Of a stretch of 39,111 bases of DNA, positions 3,772 through 17,298 are shown piece after piece. The notes below the pieces were generated by a model. That model had not been told where the DNA came from and did not search any database. It saw only the letters and a program-made list of their open reading frames with translations. Position numbers and translations under genes: made by a program. The stretch is from a virus, in IMG/VR virus record IMGVR_UViG_3300045988_061229, positions 1 through 39,111 of that record; one strand, 5' to 3'. The number at the start of each line of letters is the position of its first letter. The first letter of the stretch is position 1.

Positions 3772-3810
3772 AAAAGAAAAAGCACCCGCGGTCTGTTCAC
3801 GGATGCTTTT
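3772..3810 (-). terminator. intrinsic terminator, better oriented for minus-strand transcripts
   Basis: Stem AGCACCCG/CGGATGCT with one mismatch and an 11-nt loop. The minus strand continues TTTTCTTTTC. The plus strand has only TTT followed by CCCCC. Confidence 0.45.
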
Positions 3811-3987
3811 CCCCCAGATTTGTTTACCAGAACGCACTGCACAGGATGATCGGACACGTTGCTTTGCATCCGTCCGAATTGATGGGTTTCTTTCCATCGG
3901 CTCGGCAATGCCATCCTGACGCAAAATCAGACTTGCGCTTCTATGGACGCGCCGCTCACTTTGGCAGTTCCGGTTCTGCCCCTTGCC

Positions 3988-4044
3988 CTATCGCATCGCG
4001 CCGTTTCTTTGGTCTGGAACGGGCAAAGTCAAAAGGTTGGTCAT
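3988..4044 (-). CDS. 18-codon ORF (MTNLLTLPVPDQRNGAMR) with a perfect Shine-Dalgarno sequence
   Basis: AAGGAGGTG lies 6 nt upstream of the ATG, about 34 nt downstream of the predicted start site of the 4085-4113 promoter. Confidence 0.3.
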   Translation of the reverse strand: MTNLLTLPVPDQRNGAMR

Positions 4045-13928: not shown

Positions 13929-14164
13929 GCGCATTTCCCGAGCGCTTGAAGCGCTTACGGGAGAGAAAGAGAATAAAGCAATATGTACTATCTGAACTGT
14001 GCGGTCTGCACCGTGATGCGGTGAGGCGGTACGAGGCGGGGGAGGCTACGCCCACAACGGACGCATTGGAAAGCATTGCCGACAAGTTTGGGGTATCGGT
14101 CGATTATCTGCTCGGACGGACGGATAACCCGATGACCGTGGACGATTATCTAAAAAAATTTTGA
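13925..14164 (+). CDS. XRE-family HTH protein (79 aa)
   Basis: Trimmed to the ATG at 13925. LKRLRERKRIKQYVLSELCGLHRDAVRRYEAGEATPTTDALESIADKFGVSVDYLLG. Confidence 0.75.
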   Translation: MSAFPERLKRLRERKRIKQYVLSELCGLHRDAVRRYEAGEATPTTDALESIADKFGVSVDYLLGRTDNPMTVDDYLKKF

Positions 14165-14210
14165 AAATTCCCCTTTTAAGGGGAAAAATAAGAAAAACCT
14201 ATGCAAAAAT

Positions 14211-14252
14211 AGAGGCGTGATGGGGCGAGGCTCTTCACGCCTCTGCTTTTTC
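14211..14252 (+). terminator. rho-independent terminator ending the early operon
   Basis: Perfect 10-bp stem AGAGGCGTGA/TCACGCCTCT, followed by GCTTTTTC. Confidence 0.75.
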
Positions 14253-14254
14253 AT

Positions 14255-14812
14255 CTGTTTCCTCCTCCCTTGATAGCCCGCCCTTAGGGGCGGGCGGTTG
14301 AGGGCAAAAATGACAGGACTCCCCGCACCTCTCAACGATGTGGCCCAGGGGAGACATACGCAGACGTAGCTCAGTTGGTAGAGCACCGAACTTCGAGAGC
14401 CGGTATGTCGTGGGTCCGTGCCACACCGTCTGTGCCAGTGGCCGGGTAGCGCCCGGACAATGTGAGACCGTTGTCGTCATGGCTCACATGGAAATGACAA
14501 CGCTCGCTGAAAACTGCACCGTGGGAGGGAAACGCCTCAGCGTAATGGTGCTGCACTTGTAAAGCAGCAATCGGTGATGTGACAATCTAAGCGGGAAGAC
14601 GGCCAATTTGCGGCATAGGTGTCCCGTAAGGGGAGACCACAGCGAGTGACGGGGACTTTCCCTGAAGCGCTAAAGCAGGGCAGGGCTGCAATGCCGTACC
14701 AAAAGAGGAGAGCCGCTGCCCTGAGAGTGCGGCACGTTGTAGCCCCTCGGGGCGGGTAAAGTCTGCTATGTAAGGCCAAGGGGCGGGGGCTGGTAGCAAA
14801 TAAAGGTGCGAG
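14255..14812 (+). ncRNA. candidate large structured non-coding RNA (family unassigned; ROOL/GOLLD-like in size and context)
   Basis: About 560 bp with no credible ORF, lying between the early terminator and the terS RBS. It is packed with perfect GC-rich helices, two H-type pseudoknot arrangements, a GUAA-loop hairpin and an embedded tRNA-like element. Confidence 0.35.
14360..14437 (+). ncRNA. tRNA-like element with encoded CCA and a non-canonical anticodon arm and T-loop
   Basis: 7-bp acceptor GCAGACG/CGTCTGT followed by G and CCA. Canonical TA-GCTC-AGTTGGTA-GAGC D-arm. The anticodon arm has only 4 bp and a 12-nt loop. The T-arm GTGGG/CACAC has one mismatch and the loop TCCGTGC. Confidence 0.45.
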
Positions 14813-14821
14813 GTGGTGACA

Positions 14822-15244
14822 ATGGCTGCGCGTCTGACAGACCGGCAGAAAAAGAAAATACTGGCGGACTATGTGCAGACGAACAACTATTGCGCCACAG
14901 CGAAAATAAACGGCGTGTCCGCAACGACGGTTAAGAACCTTGTGCGGGCGAATGCCGACATTGTGGAAAAGTGCGAACAAAAAAAGGAAGAGAACACCGC
15001 CGATGTGATGGAATACATGGATAAGCACACAGAGCTTGTGTGTTCATTTATCGGCAAGGGGCTTGAAATGCTCAACGACCCGGAGAAACTGGCCGCGGCG
15101 AACCTTAGCCAGATCACAACGGCAATGGGAACGCTGATCGACAAGTGGGCGATGATCGGCGGAAGTCCTGCCGACGCGGTGAGAGAAGACGCGCTTAGTC
15201 AGAGCCTAAAGGAAATGGCAAAGGAGCTTGAGAGCGATGAATGA
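14822..15244 (+). CDS. terS: terminase small subunit
   Basis: GAGGTGG RBS before the ATG at 14822. N-terminal HTH-like LTDRQKKKILADYVQTNNYCATAKINGVSATTVKNLV. Lies upstream of terL. Confidence 0.6.
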   Translation: MAARLTDRQKKKILADYVQTNNYCATAKINGVSATTVKNLVRANADIVEKCEQKKEENTADVMEYMDKHTELVCSFIGKGLEMLNDPEKLAAANLSQITTAMGTLIDKWAMIGGSPADAVREDALSQSLKEMAKELESDE

Positions 15245-16091
15245 AAAAACGTTTTTGTTTGAAGACAATGCAGAATATGACGCATTTGTCGAAAAGTTCA
15301 AGCCAAAGAAAACAACGGATGATTGCTATACTCCGCCACTTGTATATGATGCGATACGAGGTTGGGCTTGCAATGAATACGAAATTGATCCCGATTCCAT
15401 CGTAAGGCCGTTTTATCCTGGCGGCGATTATGAGCGTCACGAGTATTCGGACGGATGCGTTGTTTTGGACAACCCTCCGTTTTCAATTCTATCAAAAATA
15501 ATTCGCTTTTATAACTCAAGAGGCATAAAATTCTTTCTTTTTGCTCCTGCGCTTACCCTTTTGTCTCCGGTTTGCGATGGGTATTGCGGAATTGCGGTTG
15601 GTGCATCAATTACATACGAAAACGGTGCTAAAGTTTCCACATCGTTTGTAACAAACCTTGAAAACAATGTGGCAAGAACAAGCCCGAACCTATACAAAAT
15701 CATAACGGAAGAAAATAAAAAGAACGAGCGAAAGTTACACAGAGAACTTCCGAAATATGATTATCCAGATAATGTAATTACCGCTACATTCTTGCAAAAA
15801 TTAAGCAAGTACGGAATTAGTTTTTCAGTTCCAAAAAATGAATCTGTAAGAATTTCAGCGCTTGATATGCAAAAAGAGAACAAAAAAACTATCTTTGGGA
15901 AAGGCTTGCTTTGCTCGGATAGAGTTGCGGCAGAAAAGGCAGCGGCAGAAAAGGCAGCGGCAGAAAAGGCAGCGGCAGAAAAGGCAGCGGCAGAAAAGGC
16001 AGCGGCAGAAAAGGAAAACAAAGTTATTTGGTCTATTTCCGAAAGGGAAAGAAAAATTATAGAGGATTTTGTTAATGCCGATAAGCGATAA
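15237..16091 (+). CDS. orphan DNA methyltransferase (N6-adenine/N4-cytosine type, DNPPF motif IV) with an (AAEKA)n C-terminal repeat
   Basis: TDDCYTPP and VVLDNPPFS motifs. Visibly A/T-rich compared with its neighbours. Inserted between terS and terL. Confidence 0.6.
   Translation: MNEKTFLFEDNAEYDAFVEKFKPKKTTDDCYTPPLVYDAIRGWACNEYEIDPDSIVRPFYPGGDYERHEYSDGCVVLDNPPFSILSKIIRFYNSRGIKFFLFAPALTLLSPVCDGYCGIAVGASITYENGAKVSTSFVTNLENNVARTSPNLYKIITEENKKNERKLHRELPKYDYPDNVITATFLQKLSKYGISFSVPKNESVRISALDMQKENKKTIFGKGLLCSDRVAAEKAAAEKAAAEKAAAEKAAAEKAAAEKENKVIWSISERERKIIEDFVNADKR
15927..16014. repeat. perfect 15-bp tandem repeat GCGGCAGAAAAGGCA, 5 full copies plus a 13-nt partial copy
   Basis: Read directly from the sequence. 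Encodes AAEKA repeats in frame within the methyltransferase. Confidence 0.95.
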
Positions 16092-17298
16092 ACAGAAAAA
16101 AATATTGGCGTTTCCGTACAGCCGCTATGATGCCTTGATATGCGACGGCGCTGTGCGTTCCGGCAAAACCTCCATCATGATGTGGGCGTTCGTCCGCTGG
16201 GCGATGGAGAATTTCAGCGGTCAGCGCTTCGGCGTGTGTGGCCGCACGGTAGATAGCTGCACAAAAAACATCATCGTTCCATTCACGGCGATGAGCCTTG
16301 CCAAAGAGCGCTATATTATCCGCTGGCGGCGCGGCGACAAGGTAATGGAAGTACGGCGCGGCGCCGTGACGAATTACTTTGAAGTGTTCGGAGGCAAGGA
16401 CGAGGCAAGTTATACGCTGATTCAAGGCCGCACGCTGGCGGGGGTGTTGCTGGACGAAGTGGTGCTGATGCCGCGCTCGTTCGTAGAACAGGCCTTGACC
16501 CGCTGCTCGGTAGACGGGGCAAAGCTGTGGTTTTCCTGCAACCCAGGAAGCCCGCAGCATTGGTTTTACACAGAATGGATACAGCGGCATAGTGAGCGGA
16601 ACGCGCTGTATCTGCATTTTGAAATGACGGACAACCCCGGCTTGTCTCAAAAGACGCTGGAACGCTATCAGGCAATGTTTTCCGGCGTGTTCTACGACCG
16701 ATACATTCGCGGTTTGTGGGTGGTGGCCGAGGGGCTGATCTATCCCATGTTTGACGAGAGCTGCATTGTGGACGAGCTGCCGGAAAAGGGAGAATACTAT
16801 GTTTCCTGTGACTACGGCACGCTTAACCCGTTTTCCGCAGGGCTGTGGCGCTGGGACGGCAAGACGGCTACGCGCATCCGCGAGTATTACTATTCCGGGC
16901 GCGAGAACCAGAAGAACAAGACGGACGAGGAATACGCCGACGAGATCGAAAAGCTCATCGGCGAAGCAGACGTCAAAAGCGTCATCGTCGACCCGTCTGC
17001 TGCCTCGTTTATCGAGGTTTTGCGGCGGCGCGGTTATATGGTGCGAAAGGCCAACAACGACGTAACCAATGGCATTATGACTACGGCGCGATTTTTGCAG
17101 GACGGCGTAATCAAGATACGCCGAAATTGCAAAGACTGCATTCGGGAGTTTGGGCTGTACCGGTGGGATGAAAAAGCTGCTGATGACAGACCGATCAAGG
17201 AAAACGACCACGCAATGGATGAAACACGGTATTTTGCTTATACGGTCCTGAAGAACAAGGCGTATCGGCGCGATTATACACCACTTTGGAACGGATAG
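16075..17298 (+). CDS. terL: terminase large subunit (PBSX-like)
   Basis: Walker A CDGAVRSGKT, LLDEV Walker B-like motif, and a C-terminal nuclease region (VDPSAASF...NDHAMDETRY). Confidence 0.9.
   Translation: MPISDKQKKILAFPYSRYDALICDGAVRSGKTSIMMWAFVRWAMENFSGQRFGVCGRTVDSCTKNIIVPFTAMSLAKERYIIRWRRGDKVMEVRRGAVTNYFEVFGGKDEASYTLIQGRTLAGVLLDEVVLMPRSFVEQALTRCSVDGAKLWFSCNPGSPQHWFYTEWIQRHSERNALYLHFEMTDNPGLSQKTLERYQAMFSGVFYDRYIRGLWVVAEGLIYPMFDESCIVDELPEKGEYYVSCDYGTLNPFSAGLWRWDGKTATRIREYYYSGRENQKNKTDEEYADEIEKLIGEADVKSVIVDPSAASFIEVLRRRGYMVRKANNDVTNGIMTTARFLQDGVIKIRRNCKDCIREFGLYRWDEKAADDRPIKENDHAMDETRYFAYTVLKNKAYRRDYTPLWNG

Follow-up and report, generated by a model that had tools for sequence, protein, structure and literature searches.

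An orphan abiF-type, antitoxin-like hairpin within a recombining array of small structured RNAs at the early/late boundary of a temperate phage

We investigated a DNA stretch of 39,111 nucleotides (nt), positions 1 to 39,111 of the IMG/VR virus record IMGVR_UViG_3300045988_061229 (hereafter the window), in which a gene-free interval, positions 14255-14812 on the + strand, lies directly before the first late gene of a prophage. The interval consists of modules, named S0, B, C, DF, G, I and H, that recombine freely among related phages, and B, DF, G and H each retain their own covarying secondary structure on the + strand. Module B belongs structurally to the AbiF-antitoxin family, without a toxin gene in this phage. 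Judged from sequence, there is in our view somewhat better than an even chance that the interval is a co-transcribed cassette array of small structured RNAs at the early/late boundary, in which B probably acts as an anti-AbiF decoy.

The same interval is present in more than 250 related gut-phage contigs, where it forms a mosaic of about 40 freely shuffling modules. Two patchy matches, both from human faecal viromes, were found in the GenBank phage collection, and their alignment shows near-identical blocks between unrelated sequence and genuine tRNA genes. A 21-mer from the 3' block occurs in at least 119 IMG/VR contigs, the 700 nt located 5' of this motif come in 87 distinct arrangements, and blastn coverage of the window interval across the homologs is blocky and step-like. 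Homologous loci, identified below by L-numbers, were written as cassette strings with a greedy module library; the window reads S0-B-C-D-E-F-G-I-H, and its relatives read S0-G-H, B-tRNAGln-H, B-N5-H, G-D-E-F-N5-I-H and dozens more. Such shuffling is a poor fit for a single global fold and fits an array of autonomous units. Covariation was tested on distinct copies of each module, with shuffle controls that ignore phylogeny.

Module B has the following parts (bp, base pairs):

14313-14357, + strand: module B, orphan abiF-type hairpin; the hairpin itself spans 14319-14353, with flanks ACAGGAC...ACAU
14319-14324/14348-14353, + strand: outer stem of B, 6 bp
14326-14328/14340-14342, + strand: inner stem of B, CAC paired with GUG, closing the 11-nt loop CUCUCAACGAU at 14329-14339

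In a permissive scan followed by cmscan, B aligned end to end with the Rfam abiF motif RF03085 (model positions 1-37 of 37). This motif, represented by RCd22 of C. difficile and by AbiFr of the Prevotellaceae AbiF, is the type III antitoxin RNA of the Abi_2/AbiD-F HEPN toxins. B and the motif have in common the outer 6-bp stem, the 1-nt 5' bulge, a 3-bp inner stem, the identical loop CUCUCAACGAU of 11 nt, an identical 13-nt core CCUCUCAACGAUG and flanks of the form ACAGRAC...GACAU; the RCd22 motifs of phiC2 have the flanks ACAGAAC...GACAU in common with the B-type hairpins. They differ in the inner stem, CAC/GUG in B and AGC/GCU in RF03085, and in the 3' internal loop, GKCCCAG in B and CUCAAAUC in the Rfam motif. 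Moreover, B is a single copy, whereas RCd22 is a tandem pair, and B sits in a multi-RNA array before late genes without a promoter or terminator of its own. In one relative (L166) a second, diverged B-like core CACACCTCTCAATGACGTGGCCCACG lies 45 nt 5' of the B hairpin, which would make a tandem pair like RCd22.

Among 42 distinct copies of B the loop is near-invariant despite a changing stem, which appears as CUCCCC/GGGGAG, CCCCGC/GCGGGG, CCCUCC/GGAGGG, CCCCUC/GAGGGG, CCUCAC/GUGAGG, CCGCCC/GGGCGG and more. Double changes are seen in all 6 outer pairs (37 cells), a result reached by 0 of 500 shuffles, and 92% of the cells are paired compared with 33-57% when the partner is slid.

A scan with an 18-mer from the B loop placed the hairpin in three contexts, the first being islands like that of the window. 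In the second, B is solitary and lies before late genes of unrelated phages, terS and HNH among them, often having a sigma-70 promoter and a terminator of its own. In the third it lies directly upstream of a 283-amino-acid (aa) protein of the Pfam family Abi_2 (E 6e-57), which has 39.6% identity to the C. difficile phiC2/CD2301 AbiF. Six viral loci display the order of promoter TTGATT-17-TATAAT, a hairpin 1 nt away from window B, U7, ribosome-binding site (RBS) and abiF, and the Abi_2 genes of L256-L261 and L265-L270 are preceded by hairpins 0-2 nt from window B. AbiFs at 41-53% identity likewise have B-type hairpins, though diverged. More distant AbiFs have leaders unrelated to B, so that B can be assigned as cognate RNA to a single AbiF subfamily.

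In the window itself, B is followed by the tRNA-like element and other RNAs, not by an abiF gene, and has no U-tract. No Abi_2 protein was found by Pfam among 10 candidate open reading frames (ORFs), nor by tblastn in the window and loci L001-L190, and the window, when searched for another abiF-type core, yielded no second one. More than 100 gut-phage contigs carry B without the toxin gene. At L141 (B at 1827-1844, - strand), a perfect TTGACA/TATAAT promoter and a U-tract are followed by only the last 23 codons of abiF (tblastn remnant 1705-1637), apparently a snapshot of abiF gene loss that leaves an orphan antitoxin RNA.

The remaining modules are as follows:

14276-14295, + strand: module S0, stable hairpin GCCCGCCC-UUAG-GGGCGGGC, no U-tract
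14360-14437, + strand: module C, degenerate tRNA-like element; 7-bp acceptor stem GCAGACG/CGUCUGU, discriminator G, encoded CCA
14438-14609, + strand: module DF, structured domain of about 170 nt with a hairpin at 14442-14456; no Rfam match
14461-14466/14483-14488, + strand: DF stem UGUGAG/CUCACA; possible pseudoknot partner CGUUGUC 14469-14475/GACAACG 14496-14502
14503-14508/14590-14595, + strand: DF long-range helix CUCGCU/AGCGGG, enclosing the variable insert E
14516-14577, + strand: DF insert E, closed by CACCG 14517-14521/CGGUG 14572-14576
14610-14701, + strand: module G, 92-nt cloverleaf tRNA mimic; 7-bp acceptor 14610-14616/14691-14697, then A and CCA at 14698-14701
14618-14638, 14641-14671 and 14675-14689, + strand: arms of G, namely a GUAA-loop arm, a long arm with a 3-nt apical loop and a 4-bp arm with a 7-nt loop
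14702-14737, + strand: module I, spacer with Shine-Dalgarno-like AAAGAGGAG and hairpin GCCGC 14712-14716/GCGGC 14729-14733
14738-14800, + strand: module H, conserved putative leader of the late operon; P1 GCCC 14742-14745/GGGC 14750-14753, then single strand GGGUAAAGUC
14764-14769/14793-14798, + strand: P3 of H, UGCUAU/GUAGCA
14774-14777/14788-14791, + strand: P4 of H, GGCC/GGCU, with purine-rich loop AAGGGGCGGG

Module DF is represented by 55 distinct copies that carry three unrelated insert types, E in the window and N18 or N25 elsewhere. RNAalifold of 51 distinct DF cores gave the hairpin at 14442-14456, the UGUGAG/CUCACA stem and the long-range CUCGCU/AGCGGG helix, and pair types in the latter were CG40/GC7/UG2, UG28/CG13/UA9 and CG37/UG12. 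Overall, 98.6% of the cells are paired and 5 pairs show double changes, which at most 1 of 500 shuffles reach. A further closing helix around DF, GGCCG/CGGCC, was rejected, being paired in 57-71% of cells only.

Module G folds as a cloverleaf in which the first arm is capped by GUAA or GCAA in the consensus and the long middle arm has an internal loop. The flanks of G in homologs change exactly at its first base and after its CCA. In 73 distinct copies 98.2% of the cells are paired and 6 pairs display double changes (0 of 500 shuffles). G was missed by both the tRNA model and ARAGORN; it has no anticodon loop, and its T-loop reads GGCAGGG. It also stands alone with its own terminator, outside any island, in L206 and L218. 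In these two loci the diverged G, which lacks CCA and has an acceptor A-U pair compensated to G-C, is located 78 nt upstream of an ORF of calcineurin-like metallophosphoesterase type (...VSDVHLGS...).

Module H always comes last, directly against the RBS of the first gene, and at least nine different genes are seen there, among them several terS types and a ParB-like gene; because H stays constant before such varied genes, a role as leader on the late mRNA is suggested rather than as a terminase-specific DNA site. In 97 distinct copies 99.3% of the cells are paired, compared with 21-69% when slid, with pair series C-G, U-G, U-A and G-U, A-U, G-C. G-U pairs make up 161 of 970 pair cells, which indicates that it is the + strand RNA of H that folds. 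The P4 loop reads AAGGGGYGGG in the homologs, one homolog has the P1 stem CCCAUG/CAUGGG, and in the L201 type both stems are replaced (UGUGCC/GGCACA and GCGC/GCGC) with a similar loop kept. Since only one pair shows a double change in the main alignment, support for H is moderate.

Two further observations concern H. The loci with weak H matches, L040, L171, L008 and L144, have elsewhere in the locus a second sequence that shares the ending ...CCAAGGAGCAGGGGCCGGUAGCAAAA with H's 3' half and precedes an RBS; it could mark a recombination junction or represent half an H element. The H loop AAGGGGCGGG (14778-14787; GAGGUG in the L201 type) is Shine-Dalgarno-like and complementary to CACCUC in the B/abiF loop (14327-14332), which itself resembles the 16S anti-Shine-Dalgarno sequence. 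This complementarity may be coincidental, and many loci have H but no B. Candidate readings of the H loop include a G-quadruplex and a Shine-Dalgarno mimic.

The smaller modules are less informative. S0 is found in about 16 homologous loci, and CRISPR-DR9 matches at S0, on both strands at 18 bits against a cut-off of 45, are probably due to chance. I follows either a tRNA or G in about 16-26 loci, and its stem is invariant and so comparatively uninformative. C scores 32.8 bits with the Rfam tRNA model RF00005 (cut-off 29), and ARAGORN called neither a tRNA nor a tmRNA in the window. C is ~95% identical to 78-nt elements in relatives that ARAGORN calls tRNA-Thr(cgt), whose consensus shows C55 and, in the anticodon stem, two mismatches. 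Further substitutions that break pairs lie in the anticodon and T arms of the window copy, which shows a T-stem mismatch, the T-loop UCCGUGC and an anticodon arm of 4 bp with a loop of at least 10 nt. In other relatives the C slot is taken by tRNAs for Gln, Trp, Ile(AAU), Ala(GGC), Gly, Cys, Met, Ser and Asp(AUC). These C-slot tRNAs (for example in L054, L081 and L033) have near-alike acceptor stems GCAGRCG and an encoded CCA with many anticodons, among them the A34 types Ile AAU, Asp AUC and Ser AGA, seldom seen in bacteria; the sequences suggest rapid turnover of the anticodon arm.

C and G resemble phage tRNA clusters and tRNA mimics (viral tRNA-like structures, bacterial YrlA) in their 7-bp acceptor, NCCA end and cloverleaf, and relatives hold genuine tRNAs in C/G-type slots. 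They differ in several ways: the first arm of G is extended and GNRA-capped, its T-loop is non-canonical and an anticodon loop is absent, C carries mutations, and ARAGORN calls neither. A scan for acceptor stems followed by CCA is uninformative alone because 37 such configurations arise by chance in the window. A tmRNA had been suggested by the acceptor-like ends, the H-type pseudoknot and a conserved GCUGAAAACUGC as possible tag start. It was ruled out: ARAGORN and Rfam find none, the putative tags of the window and L002 are unlike each other and have different ends, and the tag start GCUGAAAAC is actually the 3' flank of the covarying DF helix. Likewise, an HDV-like theta ribozyme after the tRNA was rejected, as there was no HDV-family match at E <= 10 and, by eye, no P1 partner for the sequence that comes after the CCA, at 14438.

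The original prediction, which was made from the window sequence, had proposed a large structured RNA in this interval, possibly ROOL or GOLLD, and its suggested Infernal/Rfam check was carried out. At the gathering threshold over the whole window, the only match in the interval was the tRNA at 14360-14434 (32.8 bits). A scan of 14100-14900 (801 nt) with permissive filters at E <= 10 returned no ROOL, GOLLD, tmRNA, ribozyme or riboswitch, and neither ROOL nor GOLLD was found at the gathering threshold in 14 homologous loci. Taken together, the Rfam scans of the window, its parts and the 14 loci gave tRNA, the sub-threshold abiF, skipping-rope in relatives only and FuFi-1 elsewhere. The identity with ROOL or GOLLD is therefore contradicted at any threshold, while the claims that most of the interval has no Rfam family (DF, G and H match none) and that it holds structured RNA on the transcription strand, + (B, DF, G and H), stand.

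The helices that had been listed all exist in the sequence at their given positions on the + strand, except that GTTGAG begins at 14297 and not at 14298, and the comparison divides them. CCCGCCC/GGGCGGG (S0) has the compensatory version CCCTCCC/GGGAGGG in L095, L021 and L048; TGTGAG/CTCACA is paired in 50-51 of 51 sequences and fully compensated to TGTCGG/CCGACG in L207; the GUAA hairpin at 14618-14638 shows compensatory changes and a GNRA loop; and GCCC-CTCG-GGGC (P1 of H) has a freely varying loop, which in one homolog carries a 46-nt insertion. The pseudoknot partner CGTTGTC/GACAACG is compatible with most sequences, although roughly half of them have lost its two central pairs. CGCTGA/TCAGCG is contradicted: whichever insert type is present, CTCGCT has another partner, AGCGGG at 14590-14595, and the pairs covary as CG/GC/UG. 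GCACC/GGTGC is contradicted too: L186, the sole informative E-type variant, breaks both helices and compensates CACCG/CGGTG instead. The pairing GTTGAG/CTCAAC would occupy, and mask, the conserved abiF-type loop of B; across 26 independent upstream contexts a pseudoknot of upstream sequence with this loop was not above chance (p = 0.14 by shuffle for the window type), and it was rejected. The long-range pair CAGGGCAG/CTGCCCTG (14676/14716) joins modules G and I, which occur independently, and so is not conserved; the pairing CAGGGCAG/CUGCCCUG likewise joins these two modules. Long-range pairings that tie modules together thus fail the comparative test. The only recognisable element, the abiF-type hairpin at 14319-14353, had been missed.

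The setting of the interval is that of a classical early/late boundary, since early genes and a terminator precede it and a late ORF and terL follow it:

14211-14251, + strand: intrinsic terminator; 10-bp stem AGAGGCGTGA 14211-14220/TCACGCCTCT 14235-14244, then GCTTTTT
14806-15244, + strand: RBS GGUGCGAGGUGGUG and first late ORF from the ORF list, ATG at 14822, 140 aa

The window is a temperate siphovirus-like prophage, and the phage is a temperate Oscillospiraceae-type siphophage. The integrase (135-1292, - strand) is followed by an exonuclease, a DnaC-like loader, a Holliday-junction resolvase and then small helix-turn-helix proteins. The upstream terminator, of which the terminator scan recovered the core at 14227-14243, ends the early/regulatory operon and sets the 5' limit of the island; it had been foreseen in the original prediction, together with the location in a prophage next to a tRNA-like element and the non-coding nature of the interval, and these points were borne out. 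Only short ORFs of 74 aa and 46 aa cross the interval on the + strand, and they span module boundaries that do not stay together in homologs. From the upstream terminator to the first late gene, the scan found no other terminator on the + strand. The first late ORF (14822-15244) has no Pfam or PHROG family match, and the name "terS" reflects position only; relatives have at this position recognisable Terminase_2-type small subunits, a ParB-like gene or others. The large terminase terL (Terminase_6N/6C, 16069-17298) lies 3' of a PHROG protein of no known function. This ORF (15228-16091, PHROG 21498, between the putative terS and terL) contains six tandem AAEKA(A) repeats near its C-terminus (GCGGCAGAAAAG units, about 15909-16014, + strand), with a weak HC2-like match as the only Pfam result.

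Two known prophage RNAs were also encountered. A full-length FuFi-1 RNA (RF02986) at 3776-4001 (- strand; 102.5 bits, cut-off 59.6) is a second structured RNA in the same element, in its lysogeny/early region. Skipping-rope (RF02924) is one exchangeable cassette (module N29) of the islands in relatives, with 45-51 bits against a cut-off of 36.7 (L016 1603-1697, L025 3667-3761 and L040 1982-2076, without its own terminator there), and none was found in the window by gathering-threshold and permissive Rfam scans. Both motifs were reportedly described by Weinberg in 2017 as structured small RNAs (sRNAs) in Firmicutes prophages. The island is akin to them in holding structured prophage sRNAs, with skipping-rope in homologous islands and FuFi-1 elsewhere in the window; they differ in that the Rfam members usually have their own terminators and skipping-rope is absent from the window's island.

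Several explanations of the interval have to be weighed. That it is one large structured RNA, of the ROOL or GOLLD kind or of a new class of like size, is suggested by its ~560 nt, its prophage location, a tRNA-like neighbour, many local helices and a minimum free energy (MFE) z-score of -2.3. The - strand scores alike at -2.2, and because MFE stability barely separates the sequence from shuffles the case for structure must be comparative; helix density by itself is weak evidence. ROOL RNA (RF03087) is defined by six multistem junctions together with three pseudoknots. The island has a total length, prophage context and nearby tRNAs similar to those of ROOL and GOLLD (RF01998), but it has no model match and no fixed multi-junction architecture, and it breaks into independently inherited modules of 20-170 nt. 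With modules in many orders and subsets, down to the minimal S0-G-H and B-tRNA-H, and inter-module helices not conserved, this explanation is already largely refuted and appears extremely improbable. The interval could instead be functionless debris, made of a decaying tRNA cluster, the leader of a lost abiF module and recombination scars. C is indeed a mutated copy of a tRNA-like element, the B of L141 lies beside an abiF remnant of 23 codons, and extreme mosaicism is expected from illegitimate or homologous recombination between phages. We nevertheless find debris improbable: the pairing of B, DF, G and H is kept by compensatory and G-U changes in dozens of copies with near-invariant loops, H is retained before at least nine different genes, and size-limited phage genomes rarely keep non-functional DNA.

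Two explanations involve a role in cis. H and its surroundings may act as DNA, whether as a cos or pac site, as a site bound by the small terminase or as a late promoter, since the position right before the packaging genes fits the classical contents upstream of terS, the G-rich direct repeats GGGGCGGG (14749-14756 and 14783-14790) are reminiscent of cos ends and no sigma-70 promoter was seen for the late operon. However, cos/pac specificity should track the terminase, whereas H precedes different terS families, ParB-like and unrelated genes; the G-U cells would turn into A-C mismatches on the opposite strand, or would not matter in duplex DNA; and the L201 type replaces whole stems and keeps the fold. 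The distance from the motif to the locus start, 51-130 nt, indicates no fixed cut site, a weak point given the chunking of stored data. The G-U content and the range of genes that follow H led us to reject the cos-site reading, and a DNA role of H in general seems very improbable. A stronger competitor, though still unlikely in our judgement, is that B is a cis-acting element of the late transcription unit (an attenuator, a processing/stability signal or a factor-binding site) and not a decoy, and that AbiF systems copied a hairpin widespread in phages, which lets the toxin sense, or be held by, a phage-like RNA. Many unrelated phages do have B at the head of their late/packaging genes, often with a U-tract or a separate terminator after it, in AbiF loci the hairpin with U7 acts as an attenuator-like leader, and the B loop is conserved far beyond the need of a generic stabiliser. 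Conversely, B of the window has no U-tract, its position varies relative to tRNAs and other modules, many island variants such as S0-G-H have no B, and AbiF is the sole experimentally established partner of the abiF motif.

As an orphan, selectively maintained antitoxin hairpin in a phage, B is most simply read as a decoy. RCd22 and AbiFr, both abiF-motif RNAs, neutralise the AbiF HEPN RNase by binding it directly, in cis as well as in trans (PMC12373285; PMC12737573; PMC13064643), and AbiF loci show riboswitch-like premature termination (PMC12373285). A hairpin in the cos region of the lactococcal phage sk1, just 5' of terS, inhibits AbiF (PMC13064643, citing Rince 2000 and Zilberzwige-Tal 2025). 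B is alike in its genomic place just upstream of terS, whereas the sk1 hairpin is reported to be unlike the AbiF non-coding RNA that B resembles. The pseudo-ToxI of phage PhiTE is said to be another phage RNA that blocks abortive infection. Such decoys (pseudo-ToxI, the sk1 hairpin and the RNA anti-CRISPRs, which are solitary repeat units) mimic or copy the RNA partner of a host defence protein; B differs as a predicted decoy that is one cassette among many unrelated structured RNAs.

In the cassette-array model the array would be transcribed with the late operon or just ahead of it, and the tRNA-shaped units (C, G and the real tRNAs in relatives) would be RNase P/Z cleavage sites that release individual RNAs, cleavage that may also set the 5' end of the late mRNA. 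The freed B hairpin would bind AbiF toxins of the host or of a resident prophage and hold them inactive, and abortive infection would be blocked as with pseudo-ToxI. G, an anticodon-less tRNA mimic, and DF would be further trans-acting RNAs, possibly decoys too, while H would remain on the late mRNA as a 5' leader that serves as a stabiliser or as an antitermination/translation element.

Some of the data weigh against a decoy array. B heads late genes, whereas a decoy is expected early in infection, and no sigma-70-like promoter was found between the upstream terminator and B. The score of B is 17.2 bits compared with a gathering cut-off of 37, with E = 0.41 in a 76-nt search, as its 3' internal loop and stem sequences differ from the model. 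Some orphan copies of B could be relics, given the decayed abiF remnant that adjoins B at L141. The abiF genes found with B-type hairpins are all in contigs of lower GC content (0.39-0.46) than the prophage (about 0.52-0.59 locally), and in GTDB the 3'-block 21-mer, the only genome match of the island, occurs in one genome, an uncultured Oscillibacter metagenome-assembled genome, so that the host range is weakly defined. Finally, the covariation of G and H represents few independent events among close relatives.

A broader proposal, which we consider possible but doubtful, is that the entire interval serves as a hypervariable anti-defence locus made of RNA only, where phages gather and swap decoy RNAs that are cut out of one transcript at tRNA-like punctuation. 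Its cassettes would, just as tentatively, include B, G, the same-acceptor tRNAs with many anticodons, skipping-rope, DF and others. If true, the locus would be the RNA counterpart of protein anti-defence islands.

Irrespective of the function of B, G, DF and H are three covariation-supported RNA classes without an Rfam family, and a recombining small-RNA array placed at the early/late boundary is an unusual genome organisation, which could explain the clustering of large RNAs, tRNAs and skipping-rope-like sRNAs at this prophage position. The AbiF toxin family is thought to be the ancestor of Cas13. If B works as an AbiF inhibitor, it would be a natural and widespread RNA counter-defence and a compact RNA inhibitor scaffold, and conflicts between phages and prophages over AbiF in the gut would become directly testable.

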